Made by a program: the position numbers and the translations under genes | Notes under the pieces: generated by a model | Seen by the model: the letters and a program-made list of their open reading frames with translations, nothing else | Database searches by the model: none | What the model was told of the DNA's origin: nothing | Shown here: positions 6,822 through 54,513 of the stretch, piece after piece | Layout of the letters: the number at the start of each line of letters is the position of its first letter | Position numbering within the stretch: position 1 is the first letter of the stretch | Virus record (IMG/VR): IMGVR_UViG_3300009868_000003 | Coordinates: 1-64,000 of that record | DNA: 64,000 nt | Origin: a virus | Lineage: Duplodnaviria > Caudoviricetes | Direction: 5' to 3' (one strand)

Positions 6822-7076
6822 TTAAGGCTTTACCTTTGTTGGTTGAAACCTGTCCTGTGCTAGACACGTTGCCCCTTCGAAAGGTTCAGGCTTCCTATCG
6901 ATGTAGGATTTCCAGACCTTCTTGCCCTCTTCAGACTGCAACAAGTATTTAAACCGGTTGAAGGGGTCCAGCTTTGATTCCCGGTATCGCGACTGCGCGT
7001 CCTTAAGCTGGGAAAAGTAAGTGTAGAAAAGGTCGCCGGACATATTTTCGGCGACCACTATAAATATCGTTTTCAT
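6822..7076 (-). CDS. Hypothetical protein
   Basis: ORF track frame; start at ATG 7076 abuts upstream stop. Confidence 0.65.
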   Translation of the reverse strand: MKTIFIVVAENMSGDLFYTYFSQLKDAQSRYRESKLDPFNRFKYLLQSEEGKKVWKSYIDRKPEPFEGATCLAQDRFQPTKVKP

Positions 7077-7077
7077 T

Positions 7078-7509
7078 TTAGTTTCCCATGTCTTCAAGCA
7101 GCTGCTCTTCTTCCTCGGTTAGGTCAGCCACCATCTTTACGCATACAATGTCGTTTTCATCGTATTCCTCGAACCATTTGATGAATGACTCAGCGTCCCA
7201 GAAACCATACTGGGTGGCGTCCTCTTCTGTAAGCTGGTCCTTATGTGGGTGCTTGTCAACCAGGCCGCCATGTATCGGCATCAAATTGATTCCGTTTTTG
7301 GTGTAGAAGCATACCTTATCAGGGTTGTCCTGAAAGCCTATGATGATGGAGTTCGGTATGAACTTCTTATGGGTCATCATCTCTTTGATTCCCATAAACT
7401 GATGGCCTGACTCAGTCAGCGCCTGTGCGAAGGGAACGTCCTTGTTCCAGTCGCTTAAGATTTGGTTTAATCCGTTTTGAATTCGGTTGTATTCTGCGTT
7501 TTTGCTCAT
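7078..7509 (-). CDS. Hypothetical protein
   Basis: ORF track; canonical leader after promoter at 7527. Confidence 0.75.
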   Translation of the reverse strand: MSKNAEYNRIQNGLNQILSDWNKDVPFAQALTESGHQFMGIKEMMTHKKFIPNSIIIGFQDNPDKVCFYTKNGINLMPIHGGLVDKHPHKDQLTEEDATQYGFWDAESFIKWFEEYDENDIVCVKMVADLTEEEEQLLEDMGN

Positions 7510-7543
7510 ATTGTTTGATTGATGTAGTAAATATAAACGAGTC

Positions 7544-7690
7544 TTAGAATATTGGCCTGTTTAAAAAGTTAATGAATGTTAATACCGGTTTTTCAATTAG
7601 AGACCGAATTCCAATCAGGATAAAGAGACCTCCGATGATAAATGCGGGACTCATTAAACATAATACTCCCCAATTTATTTTCTTTTTCAT
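7544..7690 (-). CDS. Small membrane protein, 48 aa
   Basis: Below track cutoff; MKKKINWGVLCLMSPAFIIGGLFILIGIRSLIEKP... Confidence 0.55.
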   Translation of the reverse strand: MKKKINWGVLCLMSPAFIIGGLFILIGIRSLIEKPVLTFINFLNRPIF

Positions 7691-7691
7691 G

Positions 7692-8167
7692 TTAACCTTT
7701 GTTAAACTTCTTAATGGTAATTGCCTTACAGAAACATATCCCTATCAGGGGCACATAGCCATCCTTTGGTATGTATACGTTGGATAACGCAATAGTAAAG
7801 TCAAACCCCTTAGGAAGGTGATACATGAGTGTCAGGTCACCTTGAGTCATAAAGTCCTTGGCACCGAACTTGTAGCCCATACCGACCGTCAGTCCCATGC
7901 TCGCATGTTTTCTCTTTAGGAAGACCCAGTCAGTCCGACCCTGTAGGAACATGTGATGGTGCCACAGGTCAAGGGAACCGTATGCGACCCTGCTGATATC
8001 TCGTTGTCATGAAGGTATCCCGCCTCTATTGTGTATCCAATAAACTCCATGGGTTTTTCGACCGACTTGTTAATAATCGGTCCAATGCTGGGCGCTATGT
8101 AAATGGAGTTCTGTGCGAATGTGTTCATGCAGAAGAACACGAAGATTGTGGTAAGTATTGTTCTCAT
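7692..8167 (-). CDS. Outer-membrane beta-barrel-like exported protein, split by a frameshift
   Basis: Signal peptide (..NTFAQ) and alternating beta-strand pattern. One extra base in the CCC run at 7988-7990 joins track ORFs 7916..8167 and 7692..7952 (..EISAGVAYGSLDLWHHHMFLQG..). Confidence 0.6.
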
Positions 8168-8236
8168 GCAGTAAACATAAAAAAAGCTTCCCGTCCTGAG
8201 AAGCTTTTAGTGTTAACTGATGTTAATGAGTTTGTA

Positions 8237-8590
8237 TTATCCCTGGTATTCAGCATCCTCCGGACCCTGATCAGGACCACTGACTCGTTCCGGTTCCTGG
8301 TCGAGCTGATCTTCTGTCCCAAACTCGTCTCCGCCTGGGAAGGGTAGCTGGTCAAAGTCAGTGTCATCTATGTCTGAGTGTTGTTGTGACCATACAGTCA
8401 TCTGACCAGTAGGTTCCTCACGGAACTTAACCAGCTTTACTCCTGCATCAGACAGGTCTTGTAGTTTTGAAATAAGGGCAAGAAGCGACATACCTGCAGG
8501 TATTGATGTCTCCAGTTTCCAGTTAGGAACGTGAGCTTCGTTGACCTGTTTCTTTATCCAGTCGTTCATCCCAAGGACTAGGTTCTTCAT
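8237..8590 (-). CDS. Hypothetical protein with capsid-targeting-like N-terminus
   Basis: MKNLVLGMNDWIKKQVNE; exact TATAAATA at 8612-8619 upstream. Confidence 0.7.
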   Translation of the reverse strand: MKNLVLGMNDWIKKQVNEAHVPNWKLETSIPAGMSLLALISKLQDLSDAGVKLVKFREEPTGQMTVWSQQHSDIDDTDFDQLPFPGGDEFGTEDQLDQEPERVSGPDQGPEDAEYQG

Positions 8591-8614
8591 GTTTAAGATT
8601 GTTCTTTGGGTTAT

Positions 8615-8833
8615 TTATACGGCAGGTTTGTTCAGGTCGAACACGGTCTTCTTCAGGAAGAGAGGAACACTGGTTAGTAGGGTCCCGGTGCCGGGATAGT
8701 TTTCATTAACCTTTCCTTTAAAGGTCACGCCGCCTACTCGGCCGTCTTTGTAATAGAAGGAATACATCCTACCCTCATGGGAGACGAAGGTATAGTCAAC
8801 GTTATTTCTGCTCTTGTATAGTTTAGGTCTCAT
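8615..8833 (-). CDS. Hypothetical protein
   Basis: ORF track. Confidence 0.7.
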   Translation of the reverse strand: MRPKLYKSRNNVDYTFVSHEGRMYSFYYKDGRVGGVTFKGKVNENYPGTGTLLTSVPLFLKKTVFDLNKPAV

Positions 8834-8837
8834 GGTT

Positions 8838-9071
8838 TTATTTATAGCCCATGTAAACCTTCTTGTTCTTTAAGATGTCAGGAAAGAATCCCTTTGCTTC
8901 CTGGTATGAAAGCCTGTTGCCCCATTCCATAACGTACTTGGTGTCAAGATTTTGGTCTTCTCCTGCCACGACTGCAATCGTGGCACGGAGCTTACCTGTT
9001 CCTGATGATTTCCATAGGACAATACCGATAGTTGCCCTTCCGCTTATCCAGCGTGTTGCTATATGTTCCAT
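8838..9071 (-). CDS. Hypothetical protein
   Basis: ORF track. Confidence 0.7.
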   Translation of the reverse strand: MEHIATRWISGRATIGIVLWKSSGTGKLRATIAVVAGEDQNLDTKYVMEWGNRLSYQEAKGFFPDILKNKKVYMGYK

Positions 9072-23382: not shown

Positions 23383-23553
23383 GTGTGAAAGGTTAATTGG
23401 TCGCTGAAACTTATGATAAGCCTCATGTCTCTTCATTTCACTAATTAACACGTATTTTTCCAAAGTCTATATAAGTTCAAAGTTATCATACAACGAAATG
23501 ATACCAAAAATGAAGACATTAATGTATTTGGTAAATTTTAAAGAAAAAAAACA

Positions 23554-24453
23554 ATGAGTTTTTTACGATTTTATGAAGAAATCTCTTCAATTCGTGGGTT
23601 TAATCCCGAAAAATACTTAGAAAATAAGGTCTATCTTATTAATGAGTTTTTCAAAAACGAACGGCGTGATTCGGTAGTTGTCGGAATCTCTGGAGGGATT
23701 GATTCTGCATTAGTTGTAAACATTTTTAACAAGGCAGCGCAAGCAAAAGATTCCCCTATCAGAATGATAGTCGGTCTTATTCTACCTGTCTCAGGTTCAG
23801 GAACGACCGGTCAAAATAAAGCAAAAGACAAAGCATTAGAAGTCCTAAACAAAATACCAGTTGCGTGTCAAGTGATGGATCTTTCACCAGCATATGACTC
23901 AATTGTGGCTCAAGGTGGAGGTTCAGCATGGGCACAGGGACAGATGGCCTCTGTATTGAGAACACCGGCTTTGTATTATCAAGCAGCTCTTTTACAAGAT
24001 GCAGGGTACCGTTCAATTGTATCAGGAACAACAAACAGGGACGAAGGGGCATATATTGGGTTTTATGGTAAAGGTTCAGACGGTATGGTTGACATACAAC
24101 CTATTGGAGATTTGCATAAGTCTGAAGTCGTCTTACTTTCTAAAATGCTAAATGTTCCGGTTGAAATTCAAATCGCTCCTCCTGCTGGAGACGTATGGGA
24201 CGGTCGTGTAGACGAACAGATGATAGGGGCACCATATTGGTTTATTGAATCGTATCTAATAATGCTTGAAAAAGGAAGGTTTGACCTGTTAGAAATGTTA
24301 GGCCAAGAAGAAAGAACAAAAGCAGACCGATGGATGGAAAACATTGAAAAGATACACAAAACAAATTTACATAAATATCAAGTCGGCCTTCCTGCAAGGT
24401 TTGTGGACGTAATTCCACGATGTGTCCCTGGCGGTTGGTCATCAAAACTATAA
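23554..24453 (+). CDS. nadE: NH3-dependent NAD+ synthetase
   Basis: PP-loop VVVGISGGIDS; Q..S.LR, GT.NRDE, GFYGKGSDG, PIGDLHKSEV and P.gD motifs; no glutaminase domain. Confidence 0.9.
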   Translation: MSFLRFYEEISSIRGFNPEKYLENKVYLINEFFKNERRDSVVVGISGGIDSALVVNIFNKAAQAKDSPIRMIVGLILPVSGSGTTGQNKAKDKALEVLNKIPVACQVMDLSPAYDSIVAQGGGSAWAQGQMASVLRTPALYYQAALLQDAGYRSIVSGTTNRDEGAYIGFYGKGSDGMVDIQPIGDLHKSEVVLLSKMLNVPVEIQIAPPAGDVWDGRVDEQMIGAPYWFIESYLIMLEKGRFDLLEMLGQEERTKADRWMENIEKIHKTNLHKYQVGLPARFVDVIPRCVPGGWSSKL

Positions 24454-24454
24454 C

Positions 24455-25240
24455 ATGGAACTAATACAGACAAAACCAGACATGAGTAAGGTCCCAGGAG
24501 GATGGGAACCTGAGACCAATTTATTATTAAACGAATCATTCGGTCCTATCCATGAAAGAAAGCTTATAGATGAAACGTCAAAGGCAATAGTGTTTGACAA
24601 TGTCCTGTCACCTGTTGATTCTAAAAAACTTAGAGACCTTTTTCTAAACTCTCACATTACTGCACCTGTCTCTATTCAAGGAAGACAGGATGTTCCTGAT
24701 GATAGAATAGGTTCGGTTAGAGCAACTGCATGGAGTCCATACCTGGCCGACCAGATTTGGTCAAGATTAAAGATGCATCCTCATTTTTCGTTAAAGTGGT
24801 TTATGATGGAAGACTTTGTTGCGACTGATTGGTGGCAAGAGGGTCCATTTAGAAAGTGGGAAGCTTTCGGAGTCTCCCCTATGTTAAGGTTTATGAAATA
24901 CGAAAAAGGAGGCCAACATTATTCTCATTATGATGCAGGTTTCATTTATCCTGACCCTCACTATCGTACTCTTAAGTCGATCGTGATTTATTTAACGACA
25001 AATGAAGGTTCAGGTGCGACTCGATTTGTAGAAGACGGACAGGGAAACCTTCCAGTTTGGGAAAGAGATCATCGTGACTGGACTCGTGAGACTCGAGAAG
25101 AAGAAATAATCACTCGTTCATACCCAATTGAAGGTTCGGTGCTTTCATTCAACCATAGGTTATGCCATGATGTTGAAATATTCAATGGACCTGGAGATAG
25201 GATAATAATTAGAGGAGACATAATATACAAAGCCATATAA
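24455..25240 (+). CDS. 2OG-Fe(II) oxygenase (prolyl-hydroxylase-like)
   Basis: RFMKY..G..YSHYD (HxD), IVIYL, GATRF, distal H (LCHDV) and R (IIRGD). Confidence 0.85.
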   Translation: MELIQTKPDMSKVPGGWEPETNLLLNESFGPIHERKLIDETSKAIVFDNVLSPVDSKKLRDLFLNSHITAPVSIQGRQDVPDDRIGSVRATAWSPYLADQIWSRLKMHPHFSLKWFMMEDFVATDWWQEGPFRKWEAFGVSPMLRFMKYEKGGQHYSHYDAGFIYPDPHYRTLKSIVIYLTTNEGSGATRFVEDGQGNLPVWERDHRDWTRETREEEIITRSYPIEGSVLSFNHRLCHDVEIFNGPGDRIIIRGDIIYKAI

Positions 25241-25241
25241 G

Positions 25242-26588
25242 ATGAATTGGAAAATTAAACGAGACTATTTTTATTCAGAATTATATGAGGAGTTTGGCCT
25301 TGAGTGGATAGAGGACGCAGGTTTTTTCTTTGATTCATACAAAGAAAATTGGAATCTTGAAGACCATACAAAAATACAGTGCACTCCTATTAACTTTATG
25401 AGAGAATCATACTCTCAAGCAAAACGACCAATAGTCCTTGTCACAACAGGTTCTTTTTGTCCAATACATGACGGTCATGTTGAAATGATGGAAGTTGCTA
25501 AAAAGACTCTTACTAAGTATGGATGGGACGTGATAGGCGGTCTAATATGTCCGGACCATTATGAGTATGTTTCATCAAAAGTTAAGGAAGGTTTTATACC
25601 TATTCACCAGAGGCTTGAATTAATAGAAAGAAAAGTTAGGGATAAAGGATGGTTGGCTGCTGACCCATGGGGAGGAGTTTTTGTTCACTGTGATGTTAAT
25701 TTTACAGACGTCGTTAGACGCACTGAGCTCTATTTGAAACATTACTTAGGACCAAATGTTGAGGTTGCATTTGTGTGTGGAGCAGACTGTGCTAGGTTTA
25801 TGAAGGCTTTTTATAAAAAAGGAATATGTGTTGTCGTCGGTCGTGGAGAGCATATGTCCTCTGCTAATTATTACTATCGAGAGTTTGGAGACATAACTAG
25901 GACTTTTTTAGTCGAGCACAATAATCCTTTGTCTTCAACTGAAGTCAGGAAGAACTTTGACATTTCTTTTAAAATAAATCGAGCAATAGTTCGAACAGAC
26001 TATTCAGGGGTAGAAACTGCAATCTTAATTCCGCATGTCCTTGACCGGTTTGAAAACGTAAAAATAAATGATGTCAAAGAACAGAGGCTTAGGTTTATGC
26101 AGACTCTTAACAGCTCAAACGTCATTAGTCTTGACCCTTTAATTCACTTAGGGCATAGCCTTGAGATTTCCAGATTATATGATTGTTTTGGAATGAAAAT
26201 GTTAGGTTACACAAACAGACCAGGAAGTCCAGACCTTGAGACTCAAATAAGGCTTATACCTGACGGAAATTACGTTTTGTTTGATGATGACACTGCAACC
26301 GGCGGGACCTTAAGGTTTGCTCAAAAACTATTGGAAAATACTGGAAAGAAGATTACAGGTTACTTTACTCTTTCGCGTGCCCTTTCTACTGATGAAATAA
26401 TAGACATCAGAGATTTTGTTAAGGGTAAGAAATTTTCAGGTTTAGTCGTCAAAGGAGCAGACAATCAAGTTAAAAGGCTACCCTACCTTGACCCATATGT
26501 AAACATATATTCAAGAGCATCAATAAAGGATCCGGTAGAATTTTCTAAGAAGGTGACAGAAATCAATGAAAGTTTTGGTTACAATTAA
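25242..26588 (+). CDS. NadD-like HxGH nucleotidyltransferase fused to a type I PRTase domain
   Basis: TGSFCPIHDGH, FVCGAD and LSSTEVR (NadD-like) in the N-half; VLFDDDTATGGTL (PRPP loop) in the C-half. Confidence 0.8.
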   Translation: MNWKIKRDYFYSELYEEFGLEWIEDAGFFFDSYKENWNLEDHTKIQCTPINFMRESYSQAKRPIVLVTTGSFCPIHDGHVEMMEVAKKTLTKYGWDVIGGLICPDHYEYVSSKVKEGFIPIHQRLELIERKVRDKGWLAADPWGGVFVHCDVNFTDVVRRTELYLKHYLGPNVEVAFVCGADCARFMKAFYKKGICVVVGRGEHMSSANYYYREFGDITRTFLVEHNNPLSSTEVRKNFDISFKINRAIVRTDYSGVETAILIPHVLDRFENVKINDVKEQRLRFMQTLNSSNVISLDPLIHLGHSLEISRLYDCFGMKMLGYTNRPGSPDLETQIRLIPDGNYVLFDDDTATGGTLRFAQKLLENTGKKITGYFTLSRALSTDEIIDIRDFVKGKKFSGLVVKGADNQVKRLPYLDPYVNIYSRASIKDPVEFSKKVTEINESFGYN

Positions 26589-26597
26589 ATAATCAAT

Positions 26598-27518
26598 ATG
26601 AATTCTGTATTAAATTTTGCACAATGGACACGAGTCTTTGAAAACGAAGAAGAAATTCGACAGATACTTCCAAATGAAATCAAAGAAGCGATTGATGGGT
26701 TAAACCGTACAGGATTCGGACCGGTCAAAATAAAAAGTTCAGTAAAGTTTTCAATACCTCTTTATTGGTTAATGGTTACTGAAACATCAGACCGAACCTT
26801 TGAATGGTTTAAGGAAGCATGTCAGTCGACTGAGTCATACATATATGACCCGATGTATTCCAAGGGAAAGCTTCACTATTTTCTTTTTAAAGAAGATATG
26901 CGGGACGCAATGCTAGCATATTATAAGAGGTGTAACGAAGACTATGTAAATCCCCTTAGTCTTGAAGGAAAAATAAAATCGCCTGATATCTATGTTGGAC
27001 AAGAAGCTCTGCTTAAAACATGGGAAATAGCTAAAACTCGATTTTCAGGTGGTGATGACATTGAGGGACAGTCTCATACTAATCAAATTATGGAAAAGAG
27101 GTCGGACATAAAGGTCTTTTTGGACGATGATCGACAGCCATTAGAGTGTGTTAAGTTAATGAAAAATAGGTTAAACGATACATCATTATATGCTGACCCT
27201 GATTGGCTTGTGATAAGAACATATGGAGATTTTAAAAGATTTTTAGAGAAATATGGTGTTCCAAGACTAATATCATTTGACCATGATATCGCTCCACCTA
27301 TTGAAAAAAGAGCAGAAGTTCCAATTGAGGACTGGTTTGACCTAGGTGAAAACAGAGAATGGAATGGGGTAGATTGTTTAAATTTGCTTAAGGATTATTG
27401 TTTGGGTAATAACGAGAACCTTCCAGAGTTCCTTATTCACACTCAAAATCCTACCGGATATAGAAACTTGTTAAATGACTTAAATAGGTTTAAAAGGTAT
27501 CAGAATGAAAATAAGTAA
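26598..27518 (+). CDS. Protein with C-terminal cyclic-phosphate-processing receiver domain and capsid-targeting-like N-terminus
   Basis: KVFLDDDRQP...W..IRTY..F...ISFDHD...NGVDC...IHTQNPTG; N-terminus MNSVLNFAQWTRVFE. Confidence 0.75.
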   Translation: MNSVLNFAQWTRVFENEEEIRQILPNEIKEAIDGLNRTGFGPVKIKSSVKFSIPLYWLMVTETSDRTFEWFKEACQSTESYIYDPMYSKGKLHYFLFKEDMRDAMLAYYKRCNEDYVNPLSLEGKIKSPDIYVGQEALLKTWEIAKTRFSGGDDIEGQSHTNQIMEKRSDIKVFLDDDRQPLECVKLMKNRLNDTSLYADPDWLVIRTYGDFKRFLEKYGVPRLISFDHDIAPPIEKRAEVPIEDWFDLGENREWNGVDCLNLLKDYCLGNNENLPEFLIHTQNPTGYRNLLNDLNRFKRYQNENK

Positions 27519-28008
27519 AAGTCATATTTTTATGTACGACCAATGGGATGGTTCGTTTGAGGGTGATGAGGTTAGGATAATATGTAATGTTCTAAATAAA
27601 AACGGCATAATTACTTCCCCTATTCCAATTCTTAAAGGGTTTTTTCATGTGTTTGTTCACTCAGTCCAGGCAAACCTTGGAAACTACGTTAAGCCTGAGT
27701 CTCATATTCCAGTCATGTTAAGGCTTAAACAAATGGCTGTTTCTAAGAAATCATATTTAGATAGGGGACAGACAGACTCTTATGTTGATTTTTTAGTCGA
27801 AGATGACTGTTTGAGTCTAACTGAAGAAATAAAGCACGGAATGACAAATGGTCTTCTTCCAGACTTCGAAGGTTGTTCAATAACTCATACTTTAAAAAAA
27901 ATCACGGTAAACACAGAAGAGCTTAAAAAAATATTTAAGATTGCTACTGGCGGATGGGAATCAACCGACGACAGATTAGGCTCTGTTTTTAGCGACAAGA
28001 TCCTCTAA
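27505..28008 (+). CDS. Hypothetical protein
   Basis: ORF track. Confidence 0.7.
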   Translation: MKISKSHIFMYDQWDGSFEGDEVRIICNVLNKNGIITSPIPILKGFFHVFVHSVQANLGNYVKPESHIPVMLRLKQMAVSKKSYLDRGQTDSYVDFLVEDDCLSLTEEIKHGMTNGLLPDFEGCSITHTLKKITVNTEELKKIFKIATGGWESTDDRLGSVFSDKIL

Positions 28009-51646: not shown

Positions 51647-53035
51647 TTATTTTAAGCCTTTAGCCATAGCTTCAATGTCTAATATGTGTTGTAAAGTATC
51701 TGCTGTCGTTTTATCCGTCCGTATTTCTTTATAGACCGGGTGAAGCAATGAATAATTACCCTCAGAGTCTTGAGAGACACCTGAACATTTTGTCTCGAGG
51801 ATTGCTCCTTTAAGACTTTCTTGATTTTCAGTAATGTATTTCATTTCCTTCTCCTTTATTCCAGTCGGAGCTGTAAAAAGAAGTCCGTCTTCAGATACTG
51901 CTTCAACTGATGAAATGAGGTGTTCATTTTTCCCAGTTCCATACCTAAATCCGGTTATTCGTAAGTCGATTGTAATTTCAAGCTTAAGTTTTATTTGCCA
52001 TTTAGGTTTACCATCCTTCCAGACCCCGTCTATTGACTTAAGAATGTTTCCTTCATACCCTAAATTTATGGTCTGTTGAAACAGTTTCATTGCTTCAGCA
52101 TAGCTATTGACATGAGTCGTCTCTATTAGGGAAACCATAGTGGTCTGAGCATCACTTATGTATTTGGCAATGTTGTCTAACCGTTGACTGTATGGTGTGT
52201 CTGAATGTGCCCTGGTATATTCATCAAGTGTAATGGTGTCCCATGTCGTATAACGAATCTTACCTAAGGCTTCTTTCATTGACATACCATGTTCTTTTTC
52301 AAACTCAGCAAGCTCCTTAGTTACCTTCTTACCTTCTATGATTTTGGCATTTATTGTAATAAGTGATGCAATTATTCCATTAGACTCATATCGGTTATAC
52401 CCGTCCATTGTCAGTTCACCGTTAAGAACGCAGTCAGGAAACCGTTTAAGTTCCTCAACAAACGTTGCTCCTTCTAAGTATGAAGGTTCACCTCCACGAC
52501 TTTCCATATTAACTATGCCACCCTCAATTATAACGTTTGCATACCGACCGTCCATCTTAATCTGGGAATATGCACCATTTCCTTGAGCTAAGAGTTCATC
52601 AACCAACTTCTTAGAAAAGGCTTTTGCTCCCATATATGGAGTTTCCTCTATTAAACCTGGAAATATCTTATTGATGTTGGTGACCCCCATACCGATTTTA
52701 CAGTCACGGTCGATTATCCTTTCAATAATATATGCATCATCAGGTGATAATGAAGACAATACAGTATGTAGGTGATTTAGTGCATCGTGACCCGTCTTTT
52801 CCCTTGAACTTAAAGGAGAAAGTAGATCCATTGCTTCATTTAGAGTCAGAGTAGGACTACCTGAATTTTTAGGGTATTCTCCCATGTGTTTGATGTAAAA
52901 TTTCACTCTAGGTGAATTAGCAAGGTATAATGCTCTTTTTAAGGTTTCATTTTCGGAATAAGACCGAAGGATGTCCATCTTTGCATTAGAACCGTTGTCT
53001 GATGATATATGGTCGAATATTTCTTTAACTGTCAT
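51647..53035 (-). CDS. lig: ATP-dependent DNA ligase (T4 gp30-like)
   Basis: QIKMDGRY (KxDG), VLNGEL, WD, EGNILK, W.K.K; OB-fold C-terminus. Confidence 0.92.
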   Translation of the reverse strand: MTVKEIFDHISSDNGSNAKMDILRSYSENETLKRALYLANSPRVKFYIKHMGEYPKNSGSPTLTLNEAMDLLSPLSSREKTGHDALNHLHTVLSSLSPDDAYIIERIIDRDCKIGMGVTNINKIFPGLIEETPYMGAKAFSKKLVDELLAQGNGAYSQIKMDGRYANVIIEGGIVNMESRGGEPSYLEGATFVEELKRFPDCVLNGELTMDGYNRYESNGIIASLITINAKIIEGKKVTKELAEFEKEHGMSMKEALGKIRYTTWDTITLDEYTRAHSDTPYSQRLDNIAKYISDAQTTMVSLIETTHVNSYAEAMKLFQQTINLGYEGNILKSIDGVWKDGKPKWQIKLKLEITIDLRITGFRYGTGKNEHLISSVEAVSEDGLLFTAPTGIKEKEMKYITENQESLKGAILETKCSGVSQDSEGNYSLLHPVYKEIRTDKTTADTLQHILDIEAMAKGLK

Positions 53036-54027: not shown

Positions 54028-54513
54028 TTAAGGTTTTAGTCGGTCTAAAATAATTTTTTGAGCAGGAACTATTTTTGAGTATGCCTCTTCATATTTGATA
54101 AAACCAGCCCAGTCCACTTCTTCTGTCTGAAGCATGGTCTTAGGAAGTGTTGGTCCAGTTAGACCTAAAGATTCTAACTTTGGAACTGAAACTTCATAAT
54201 AAGTTACGGTCTTCTTAGGTTTGTTTCCTGAGAAAAAAACAAAAGTCTTGGGTTCCCTATTTATAAACTCTTCAGGGACCTCAAGACCTATTTCTTCCTT
54301 GACCTCCCTAAGGGCAGCTTGCCATTCGGATTCTCCAATTTCAATCTTTCCTTTTGGAATACCTAGTGTCGGTTTTTGCCAACTTGAATTTGTGGGGTGA
54401 ATTAAAAGTATTTTACCTTCACATGTGATTGCTAATCCTGCTGCATCTTTCATCTCAGACATATTATCATATGCTTCTATTATAAAATCGTTGAAAGATT
54501 TAACTCTTATCAT
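54028..54513 (-). CDS. NUDIX hydrolase with capsid-targeting-like N-terminus
   Basis: Nudix box PKGKIEIGESEWQAALREVKEEIG; N-terminus MIRVKSFNDFIIE. Confidence 0.9.
   Translation of the reverse strand: MIRVKSFNDFIIEAYDNMSEMKDAAGLAITCEGKILLIHPTNSSWQKPTLGIPKGKIEIGESEWQAALREVKEEIGLEVPEEFINREPKTFVFFSGNKPKKTVTYYEVSVPKLESLGLTGPTLPKTMLQTEEVDWAGFIKYEEAYSKIVPAQKIILDRLKP

Follow-up and report, generated by a model that had tools for sequence, protein, structure and literature searches.

Three tightly packed plus-strand genes occupy positions 23554-26588 of the window, the 64,000-nt stretch of a large uncultured phage that was analysed. According to the ORF list, they encode a NadE-like amidase (23554-24453), an oxygenase (24455-25240), and a fusion of an NMN adenylyltransferase (NMNAT) with a phosphoribosyltransferase (PRT)-like domain (25242-26588). 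Direct reading of the junctions agrees with the 1-nt gene spacing claimed in an earlier, sequence-only reading of this DNA: the TAA stop at 24451-24453 is followed by a single C and the ATG at 24455, and the TAA at 25238-25240 by a single G and the ATG at 25242. The 171-nt intergenic leader read upstream of the NadE-like gene (23383..23553, plus strand) is a probable promoter region of the cluster. Neither sigma-70-type promoter signals nor terminator signals exceeded shuffled expectation in a scan, as would be expected if the phage infects a host of a non-sigma-70 type.

Two further co-directional genes complete the cluster. A 306-aa gene (26598..27518, plus strand; Pfam PF20274, 2.1e-15; phrog_1479, 2e-19) encodes a protein whose residues 171-296 form a cREC (cyclic-phosphate-processing receiver-like) domain, preceded by an N-terminal half without a recognised family. 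The cREC family has been tied to NAD/ADPr systems (PMC7824862). The gene was not found adjoining the module at the other loci examined; it is local to the present phage and lies outside the conserved module. The final, 167-aa gene (27505..28008, plus strand, ORF list) overlaps it by 14 nt and has no recognisable family in Pfam and PHROG-type searches. Because the only DNA ligase found in the 87-kb phage record (34% complete) is ATP-dependent, no NAD-consuming phage function is documented in that record.

Domains and catalytic motifs

The NadE-like protein (299 aa) is an NH3-type PP-loop amidase without a glutaminase domain. It matches the Pfam family NAD_synthase (PF02540) over residues 25-276 (3.3e-31; 108.7 bits vs. 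a cut-off of 21) and TIGR00552 nadE (106.1 bits, above the cut-off of 63.65), and its PP-loop SGGxDS, here SGGIDS, is located at residues 46-51 (23689-23706). Its scores fall under the whole-protein equivalog cut-offs of NF010587 (120.5 bits vs. 255) and NF001979 (52.6 vs. 250), and a 41-sequence alignment reveals a subfamily-specific C-terminal tail, R-x-V-P-G-G-W, at residues 288-295. Judged by sequence, the protein is assigned to a separate subfamily and is not an orthologue of housekeeping NadE. Its closest PDB matches are 2e18 (3e-21) and, second-best, the Francisella NMN synthetase 3fiu (7e-21).

The oxygenase (261 aa) is of the P4H-like Fe(II)/2-oxoglutarate (2OG) type, with the HxD...H/Arg site intact. 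Searches yielded 237 homologues; among the 32 that were aligned, the HxD pair H158/D160 (24926-24934), the distal H238 (25166-25168), and the 2OG-binding R249 (25199-25201), all on the plus strand, are invariant. An N-terminal motif, P-G-G-W-E-P, is likewise invariant. The protein matches Pfam 2OG-FeII_Oxy_3 (PF13640) weakly (3.8e-4; 21.8 bits, under the gathering score of 27), and this match is precomputed for many homologues. The AF2 model of the protein (pLDDT 93) shows a double-stranded beta-helix of the P4H-like kind, with structural matches to 2jij (Z 15.9), 5c5t (Z 15.2; Foldseek 1.8e-7), and 4nhx (Z 15.1). The nearest structural relatives are protein prolyl and lysyl hydroxylases, and the neighbours include the nucleoside-tailoring enzymes PolD (Z 14.1) and PasI (Z 12.8); look-alikes in the protein atlas comprise generic P4H-like clusters only. 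In the database, the gene is called from M10 (24482), yet homologues span residues 1-261.

The fusion protein opens with a helical lead (residues 1-60; 25242..25421, plus strand) that was delimited by family alignment and AF2 helices 2-59 and is conserved family-wide at Y11, L14, and G27. An NMN/NaMN adenylyltransferase domain follows (residues 61-245; 25422..25976, plus strand), as identified by alignment, Foldseek, profile, and fold comparison. Its HxGH motif is H76-H79 (25467-25478), with H76 and H79 invariant in the family alignment, the D-P-W motif is at residues 141-143, and the SSTxxR motif, S231-S232-T233-x-x-R236 (25932-25949), is conserved. The domain superimposes on 9iw1 (Z 19.1) and 5z9r (Z 17.9), Foldseek retrieves 9iw1 (4e-10), 9rpk, and 1nup, and the fusion-family profile matches 9rpk at 3e-22. 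The sequence-only reading had called this domain NadD-like: the NMNAT fold and motifs stand, but the domain scores only 37.3 bits against bacterial NadD (TIGR00482; cut-off 112.45) and is closer to eukaryotic NMNATs.

The remainder of the fusion is a type I PRTase-like domain (residues 246-448; 25977..26588, plus strand) recognised by alignment, loop matches, and fold comparison. The PRPP/ribose-5-phosphate loop D348-D349-D350-x-x-T-G-x-T356 (26283-26309; in full L-F-D-D-D-x-x-T-G-x-T) had been read as type I, and this is upheld by the invariance of DDDxxTGxT in 28 sequences (D348, D349, D350, G354, and T356). Further invariant residues are R251, D298, S310-R311, D388, D391, and Y415; altogether, the loop and about 20 other residues are invariant across sequences that are 25-73% identical. 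Fold matches are moderate, namely to HGXPRT 4z1o (Z 7.7 over 139 residues, rmsd 4.7), OPRT 2yzk (Z 7.5), and 1vdm (Z 7.0). A sequence search matched the APRT loop (1e-4), and the profile matches the loops of Prs, APRT, and HPRT (E 0.01-0.1) as well as that of PurR. No Pfam PRTase model matches this domain at E <= 0.1. Pfam and TIGR models, alignments, AF2 models, and fold matches support the earlier domain assignments (NadE, 2OG-Fe(II) oxygenase, adenylyltransferase fused to a PRTase-like domain), the whole-domain match to the PRT fold being only moderate (Z 7-8).

Conservation, fusion and distribution of the module

The three families travel together. In eight of ten IMG/VR jumbo-phage loci, NadE-like and oxygenase genes lie no more than 8 kb from the fusion gene, and at locus L003 the NadE gene falls just beyond the flank that was analysed; the families co-occur in nine of the ten jumbo-phage contigs and in at least 31 of 39 bacterial loci. 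NadE and oxygenase form a single ORF in about 13 bacterial loci, and all four domains are contained in one ORF of 1,114-1,193 aa in nine. Loci L040 and L041 hold the four domains in open frames of 1,483 and 1,591 aa, which are probably over-extended, and L042 is cut at a contig end. The order is constant: NadE, oxygenase, NMNAT, PRT. A search begun from the oxygenase side arrives back at the same module. Unrelated loci share no other families near the fusion gene, so that chance is far from explaining the grouping, and the gene fusions strongly back the view that the three genes are one functional NAD-type unit. A search for additional conserved neighbours yielded only a Ser/Thr kinase (four loci), a Pol-beta-type NTase (four phage loci), and, where GC content is high, antisense artefacts; none of these was accepted as a member. 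The long N-terminal extensions of some bacterial ORFs contain no Pfam domain and are probably over-extended reading frames.

The family comprises at least 700 sequence clusters at 50% identity, distributed across several bacterial phyla and jumbo phages. Bacterial carriers include Myxococcota, Obscuribacter, Legionella shakespearei, Cellvibrio, Actinomycetes, Elusimicrobia, and Firmicutes. All five bacterial carriers checked also encode canonical NadD and NadE, so the module is accessory. Seen against this distribution, the earlier idea of a phage device directed at the products of defence systems gives way to that of a widespread bacterial accessory set that jumbo phages also carry. The module is testable because cultured carriers exist, namely Legionella shakespearei DSM 23087, Paraliomyxa miuraensis SMH-27-4, Xanthomonas phage X1, and Acinetobacter phage ME3. 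Among 50,697 deposited phages, neither the region (megablast) nor the fusion protein (tblastn) had a match; only more sensitive oxygenase, NadE, and profile searches detected divergent copies in phages X1, BUDD, and ME3. Phage ME3 encodes the PRT-like domain in a gene of its own, coupled to NadE. On comparison, ME3_307, ME3_294, and a 380-aa neighbour in phage X1 were ruled out as NMNAT-PRT homologues.

In four anaerobe-type loci (L038, L056, L057, L058), the place of the oxygenase is taken by a radical-SAM enzyme (291 aa; 1,280 matches) encoded directly upstream of NadE-like and NMNAT-PRT partners that are full-length homologues of those described here (hhalign 3e-91 and 1e-44). The oxidase is fused to or beside NadE in every case and never to the PRT domain. 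In view of this exchange, the module seems unable to do without oxidative or radical chemistry, which appears to belong to the NadE reaction. The nearest named families of the radical-SAM partner, MoaA (8e-10) and viperin (6e-8), act on nucleotides. In L056 and L058, two of the four radical-SAM loci, a PLP enzyme resembling Lys/Orn/DAP decarboxylases immediately precedes the radical-SAM gene, a hint of an amine donor. None of the radical-SAM partner, the PLP enzyme, and the NMNAT-PRT fusion has a named family in NCBIfam.

NAD genes also occur near some copies of the module. NAMPT, a second NMNAT, and a Nudix gene adjoin it in L011, PncB and a Gln-dependent NadE in L056, and NMNAT and NAMPT in Xanthomonas phage X1. 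Together with the cREC gene downstream in the present phage, these neighbours place the module in an NAD context.

Comparison with known NAD systems

In its own architecture, the module matches neither NARP1, NARP2, nor NARP3, nor the published pncB-nadD-nadE phage clusters; a mismatch with the first two had been claimed before, and it now extends to the third. It shares with the Preiss-Handler pathway (PncB, NadD, NadE) the logic of phosphoribosyl transfer, adenylyl transfer, and ATP-dependent amidation, and both sets are clustered in jumbo phages, the pncB-nadD-nadE genes in those of the gut (PMC11662467). In contrast to that pathway, the module has no type II NAPRTase and instead fuses a type I PRT-like domain to the adenylyltransferase. 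This adenylyltransferase is eukaryote-type rather than NadD, the NadE belongs to a distinct subfamily with a P-G-G-W tail, and the obligate fourth member is an oxygenase or a radical-SAM enzyme. PncB is never a module member across 55 loci, though it adjoins the module in L056, and PF04095 (NAPRTase/Nampt family) has no match in the 87-kb record, which is 34% complete.

NARP1 consists of Adps, a PRPS-like ADPR pyrophosphokinase, and the Nampt-like Namat. Both systems employ, in a phage NAD setting, a PRT/PRPS-superfamily protein with a ribose-5-phosphate loop. However, the C-terminal domain of the module is a single unit of about 200 residues nearest HGXPRT/OPRT/APRT rather than a two-lobed PRPS, the module bears no sign of ADPR use, and Namat was not found in the 87-kb record. 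NARP2 consists of Nampt and NMNAT (the NMNAT/Nudix NatV; KVP40 type). An NMNAT domain is present here, and a Nampt-family gene was not found in the 87-kb record, which lacks about two-thirds of the genome. The module stands beside a Nampt+NMNAT set, not instead of it, in L011 and phage X1; the possession of both by some phages speaks against simple redundancy. NARP3 combines the PnuC transporter with NadR, which comprises NMNAT and ribosylnicotinamide kinase (PMC13464706); the NMNAT protein of the module has no kinase domain. Like the module, NARP2 and NARP3 are phage-borne sets that end in an NMN adenylyltransferase and raise NAD, but they begin from nicotinamide or nicotinamide riboside and involve neither amidation nor an oxidase.

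Two other systems offer partial parallels. The Francisella route converts NaMN to NMN by a NadE-type NMN synthetase, followed by NadM, and likewise employs a stand-alone NH3-type NadE. Because the Francisella enzyme is the second-best solved relative, amidation could precede adenylylation in the module. The Francisella route differs in that identity is only about 25-30% and that it has neither an oxidase partner nor a PRT fusion. Precedents for laying bare the nitrogen of an amide or amidine by oxidation are peptide amidation by PHM/PAL and archaeosine synthesis by ArcS and the radical-SAM enzyme RaSEA. In these, an amine donor is ligated and its C-N bond is then cleaved by an O2-dependent or radical-SAM enzyme to leave NH2. 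The module enzymes have no homology to them and the analogy is mechanistic only, yet it would account for three features: that NadE is paired with an oxidase, that oxygenase and radical-SAM enzyme are interchanged, and that a Lys/Orn-decarboxylase-like gene lies nearby.

Proposed function and alternatives

We consider it evenly balanced that a conserved, self-contained accessory module of four activities, here split over three genes, assembles an NAD-type dinucleotide from a base, PRPP, and ATP by the following route, whose substrates and sequence of reactions we infer. The type I PRTase-like domain would couple PRPP to a free pyridine-type base that bears a carboxylate, nicotinate being the simplest candidate. 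The fused eukaryote-type NMNAT would adenylylate the mononucleotide at once, pulling the first reaction forward, and the NadE-like enzyme would then adenylate the base carboxylate and convert it to a carboxamide. The oxygenase, or the radical-SAM enzyme in anaerobe-type versions, would contribute an obligatory oxidative step physically coupled to NadE, most likely in the service of amidation. Our preferred, tentative reading of this step is oxidative nitrogen delivery: an amine or amino acid would supply the nitrogen for this NadE, which has no glutaminase domain, and the oxidase would either dealkylate an N-alkyl amide made by NadE, leaving the primary amide, or free NH3 beside NadE. The full sequence as an unrecognised, widespread variant of NAD biosynthesis (mononucleotide formation by a type I PRT, ligation of an amine or amino acid in place of free ammonia or glutamine, and oxidative C-N cleavage by a 2OG oxygenase in aerobes or a radical-SAM enzyme in anaerobes) is possible but doubtful. 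In phages, the module may maintain or restore the NAD pool in infection independently of host NadD and NadE, including under NADase defences.

Some observations sit uneasily with NAD assembly. To our knowledge, no type I PRTase uses nicotinate or nicotinamide, all known PRTases for these bases being of type II, and the PRT fold match is only moderate. In addition, dedicated NadE and NadD paralogues could mean that the intermediates are other than ordinary NaMN and NaAD, and the 87-kb record documents no phage function that consumes NAD. With regard to nitrogen delivery, ammonia is seldom limiting, so a rationale is needed, and the decarboxylase-like partner accompanies only two of four radical-SAM loci.

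It is also conceivable, though unlikely, that the product is an NAD analogue rather than NAD. By acting on the ribose or ring, the oxidase would yield, for example, a pyridone or sugar-modified dinucleotide serving as a special cofactor, signal, or antimetabolite, and dedicated paralogues would be needed because housekeeping enzymes reject the intermediates. The canonical NadD and NadE of all five tested carriers, the complete Nampt+NMNAT sets beside the module in some phages, the nucleotide-acting relatives of the radical-SAM partner, and the resemblance of the oxygenase to PolD and PasI are consistent with this, although the latter two similarities are at superfamily level only. Known type I PRTases act on N-H bases such as lactams, and a pyridone may suit such an enzyme better than a pyridine. 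However, the NMNAT domain retains the HxGH, D-P-W, and SSTxxR motifs typical of NMN/NaMN enzymes, the oxidase is linked with NadE rather than with PRT or NMNAT, and the neighbour search found no export, immunity, or receptor gene conserved beside the module. This linkage, including fusion to NadE and never to the PRT domain, also weighs on the quite unlikely reading that the oxidase forms the base or renders it aromatic, or creates the carboxylate by oxidation of a side chain, before PRT and NadE yield ordinary NAD. Such an unrecognised entry to the pyridine-nucleotide pool from a non-standard precursor would fit the exchange of an O2-dependent for a radical-SAM enzyme, a classic sign of a true biosynthetic oxidation; the PLP decarboxylase-like gene at two loci could supply the precursor, and the type I class of the PRT hints that nicotinate is not the base. 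Nevertheless, a pyridine ring is beyond one oxidase, no plausible abundant precursor can be named, and no additional biosynthetic gene is conserved nearby.

Finally, only NMNAT and NadE may act, in ordinary NAD synthesis via NaAD or NMN (NaMN to NaAD to NAD, or NaMN to NMN to NAD), with the PRT-like domain sensing PRPP, ribose-5-phosphate, or ADPR and the oxygenase serving as a regulatory protein hydroxylase that reports O2/2OG. PRT-fold domains act as sensors in PurR and PyrR, the PurR loop is matched by the PRT profile, the oxygenase is structurally nearest protein hydroxylases, and 3fiu is the second-best PDB match of the NadE-like protein. We nevertheless regard this as very unlikely: a radical-SAM enzyme in the oxygenase slot is hard to reconcile with O2/2OG sensing, the PRPP loop and some 20 PRT residues stay invariant at 25-73% identity, the PRT-like domain of ME3 is its own gene coupled to NadE, and carriers already possess NadD and NadE. 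Two further candidates were rejected, namely NARP1-like ADPR recycling (no PRPS-type architecture, no Namat in the 87-kb record) and DNA or tRNA base modification (specific NMNAT and NadE signatures, no glycosylase/TGT-type partner travelling along). Nothing was found to point to the ADPR or cADPR substrates, or the purine nucleotide product, that the sequence-only reading had entertained. The literature on phage NAD modules, on NadE with oxygenase or radical SAM, and on phages X1 and ME3 yielded no description of the module.

NAD synthesis is regarded as fully mapped, and this family couples NAD-type enzymes to an obligatory-looking oxidase and a PRT of the wrong fold class. Solving the module would bring to light a new enzymatic route to NAD, a natural NAD analogue not yet described, or nitrogen-delivery chemistry of a new kind. 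The module would be a fourth kind of phage-borne NAD set in the NAD-depletion arms race and, if the proposed route is true, jumbo phages would have captured an autonomous line to rebuild NAD in infected cells.

Gene layout and domain content of the module

The module occupies three genes on the forward strand of the window, identified as open reading frames: a NadE-like amidase gene (gene 1, 23554-24453), a 2OG/Fe(II) oxygenase gene (gene 2, 24455-25240) and a gene encoding a fusion of an NMN/NaMN adenylyltransferase (NMNAT) with a type I phosphoribosyltransferase-like (PRT) domain (gene 3, 25242-26588). The junctions read TAA-C-ATG and TAA-G-ATG, which confirms that both spacers are 1 nt, as initially described from the sequence alone. 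A leader of 171 nt lies 5' of gene 1. Two further co-directional genes follow gene 3, the first beginning at 26598 after a gap of 9 nt and the second (27505-28008) overlapping it by 14 nt. Together with the module, they form a 5-kb island bordered on both sides by genes on the opposite strand; no Pfam family was found in the immediate neighbor genes of this island. The gene directly after the module (26598-27518, forward strand) encodes a 306 aa protein with an N-terminal half of no assigned family and a C-terminal cREC (cyclic-phosphate-processing receiver-like) domain. The cREC family has been tied to NAD/ADPr-processing systems by Iyer et al. (PMC7824862). A cREC gene was not seen beside the module in other loci, and the link is local to this phage.

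The virus record comprises 87,260 bases and is estimated to be 34% complete, and the phage genome is therefore roughly 250 kb. Phage hallmarks in the window are a thymidylate synthase, an endolysin, an endonuclease, and an ATP-dependent DNA ligase (51647-53035, reverse strand; phrog_114, 1e-101). No NAD-dependent ligase domain was found in the 87-kb record (34% complete); an obvious NAD-consuming phage enzyme is therefore missing from this part of the genome. The sole other candidate nucleotide- or NAD-related hydrolase found in the same record is a Nudix hydrolase (54028-54513, reverse strand; PF00293, 3.8e-13).

The domain calls made from sequence alone for the three genes are supported by Pfam and TIGR matches, invariant motifs, AF2 models, and structure comparison. 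The gene 1 product is a NadE-type PP-loop enzyme lacking a glutaminase domain; it matches PF02540 (3.3e-31) and exceeds the cut-off of TIGR00552, with scores far under the cut-offs of whole-protein NadE equivalogs. Among solved structures, Pyrococcus NadE (2e18) and the Francisella enzyme (3fiu) come closest to it. Module-linked NadE-like copies constitute a separate subfamily with a conserved C-terminal tail, R-x-V-P-G-G-W (24415-24438, forward strand).

Gene 2 matches the Pfam 2OG-oxygenase models only marginally and has 237 close homologues. Residues invariant across 32 aligned sequences include H158-x-D160, H238, and R249, along with many arginines and aromatic residues and the N-terminal motif P-G-G-W-E-P (24491-24508, forward strand). 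AF2 predicts a double-stranded beta-helix of P4H type (pLDDT 93), which matches the PBCV-1 prolyl hydroxylase by Foldseek (1.8e-7) and algal and viral P4H, OGFOD1, and PiuC with Z scores of 15-16. These matches do not reveal the substrate of the oxygenase.

The gene 3 model is likewise confident (pLDDT 92). Residues 61-245 form an NMN/NaMN adenylyltransferase with conserved HxGH, D-P-W, and SSTxxR motifs, to which the fungal, plant, and human enzymes are closest (Z 19.1); the sequence-only reading was thus right in calling an adenylyltransferase fused to a PRT domain, but the adenylyltransferase is of the eukaryotic type, not NadD-like. Over residues 246-448, the protein aligns with type I phosphoribosyltransferases (HGXPRT, Z 7.7; OPRT, 7.5; purine PRT, 7.0), and sequence and profile searches matched the invariant loop D-D-D-x-x-T-G-x-T to those of APRT, PRPS, and HPRT. 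The fusion protein has approximately 70 full-length homologues at 25-73% identity, and its family comprises 701 clusters at E <= 1e-30 in a library of 1.84 billion proteins. In a midpoint-rooted tree, the window's protein falls among phage contigs, and a split-gene clade of phages and some bacteria separates from a clade holding nearly all four-domain bacterial forms. No donor of the phage module can be named from this tree.

Recurrence and fusion of the module

The four enzyme types keep their catalytic signatures intact and behave as a single unit in inheritance, fusion, and exchange. Around the fusion gene, only the NadE-like and oxygenase families recur in ten IMG/VR contigs (75-482 kb), and eight of these have both within 8 kb of it. 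In the remaining two, NadE is just beyond the fetched flank (L003) or the oxygenase is absent from a record that is 76% complete (L005). Scanning prokaryotic genomes, one for each species, yielded 39 bacterial loci, distributed among Myxococcota, Candidatus Obscuribacter, Legionella shakespearei, Paraliomyxa miuraensis, Cellvibrio, Saprospiraceae, Actinomycetes, Leptospiraceae, and Burkholderiales, among others. At least 31 of these carry the complete set in the order NadE, oxygenase, NMNAT-PRT. NadE and oxygenase are fused in one ORF at approximately 13 bacterial loci, and all four domains are joined in a single ORF of 1,114-1,193 aa at nine. The ORF at L048:6135-9491, from Legionella shakespearei, is a four-domain form. 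Two more bacterial loci (L040, L041) also have four domains in open frames of 1,483 and 1,591 aa, which are probably over-extended, and the ORF of a third (L042) is truncated where the contig stops. In fused proteins (L013, L018, and others), the P-G-G-W motifs of the NadE tail and the oxygenase start stand in tandem. Two randomly chosen oxygenase homologues, used as starting points, both led back to the module, and a neighbor search across loci found no other conserved neighbors. Recurrence in phages and bacteria, together with fixed order and fusions in the bacterial loci, bears out the proposal that the triad is one unit.

In a Polyangiales MAG (L013 / L017 344-3238), T6SS PAAR and VgrG genes lie on one side of the module and genes for an AsnC regulator and glutamate synthase on the other; these associations may be coincidental.

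The module is accessory in its bacterial carriers. All five carrier genomes tested encode a high-scoring canonical NadE, and four encode a NadD above the cut-off, the fifth having a NadD-like match just under it. NAD-related genes also surround the module: a phage contig (L011) has genes for Nampt and a further NMNAT plus two Nudix genes directly 5' of it, and a radical-SAM-type locus (L056) has genes for PncB and a glutamine-dependent NadE directly 3' of it. Cultured phages are represented as well. In Xanthomonas phage X1 (OQ427096.1, 4710-5825), WEM34357.1, annotated as a 'hypothetical protein', was identified by hhalign (probability 99%, 4.6e-19) as a divergent NMNAT-PRT homologue; its gene adjoins an annotated '2OG-Fe(II) oxygenase' and 'NAD(+) synthase', and NMNAT and Nampt genes follow. 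This phage therefore has a module variant beside NMNAT and Nampt genes. Acinetobacter phage vB_AbaM_ME3 (KU935715.1, 7918-8556) encodes a 212 aa 'hypothetical protein', ME3_299, which matches the PRT-like half alone of the family profile (4e-18) and is thus a stand-alone version of this domain. Its gene runs into the 5' end of the NAD synthetase gene, to which it is coupled.

Exchange of the oxygenase for a radical-SAM enzyme

The oxidase is exchangeable but appears indispensable to the module. An Elusimicrobiaceae locus lacks the oxygenase and has instead a radical-SAM gene, from a family of 1,280 members, preceding the NadE-like gene. Three more independently chosen members of this family lie directly 5' of NadE-like and NMNAT-PRT genes, with a 4-nt overlap between radical-SAM and NadE-like genes in two of them. 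By hhalign, both partners are homologous over their full length, including the PRPP loop. Given this placement, the oxidase is in every case tied to NadE, either fused or coupled to it, and in none to the PRT domain. The NadE-like tail, as K-G-G-W, is retained in three of the four radical-SAM-type loci and is therefore more than an oxygenase docking site.

Two Firmicutes-type loci encode a PLP enzyme most similar to Lys/Orn and DAP decarboxylases, translationally coupled 5' of the radical-SAM gene (L056:3893-5011; L058:3923-5011). This enzyme may be a fifth, optional module member. The Bacilli-type locus L058 also encodes an NMNAT-PRT protein with an extra C-terminal GNAT acetyltransferase domain (6889-8991), and a SPASM-like radical-SAM gene follows.

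Proposed chemistry and physiological role

In the step sequence we infer, the PRT domain would convert a base and PRPP to a mononucleotide and the NMNAT domain would convert this to a dinucleotide, the fusion of the two serving to pull the unfavorable first step. The NadE-like enzyme would then convert the dinucleotide to a carboxamide, with an oxidative step tied to amidation. By analogy with peptide amidation and ArcS/RaSEA, the oxidase may perform oxidative nitrogen delivery or unmasking. We tentatively favor this reading, because no glutaminase is present in the NadE-like enzyme, which is partnered by either an O2/2OG or a radical-SAM enzyme. It is rather unlikely that the module instead makes an NAD analogue, and doubtful that the oxidase acts on the precursor base; across the loci, the oxidase is joined to NadE. 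A PRT domain of sensor type paired with the oxygenase as a regulatory hydroxylase is improbable, given that a radical-SAM enzyme can take the oxygenase's place.

The module differs in composition from the described phage NAD-reconstitution routes. It shares the gene set of neither NARP1 (Adps and Namat) nor NARP2 (Nampt and NMNAT), in agreement with the sequence-only reading, and is also unlike NARP3 (PnuC and NadR). The surveys of Iyer et al. mention neither NadE nor an oxygenase in such a role, and we found no description of the module in the literature. Among published systems, the canonical pncB-nadD-nadE cluster found in some gut jumbo phages (PMC11662467) comes closest. On the basis of its context, it is plausible that the phage module sustains NAD while the phage infects its host or counters NADase defences.
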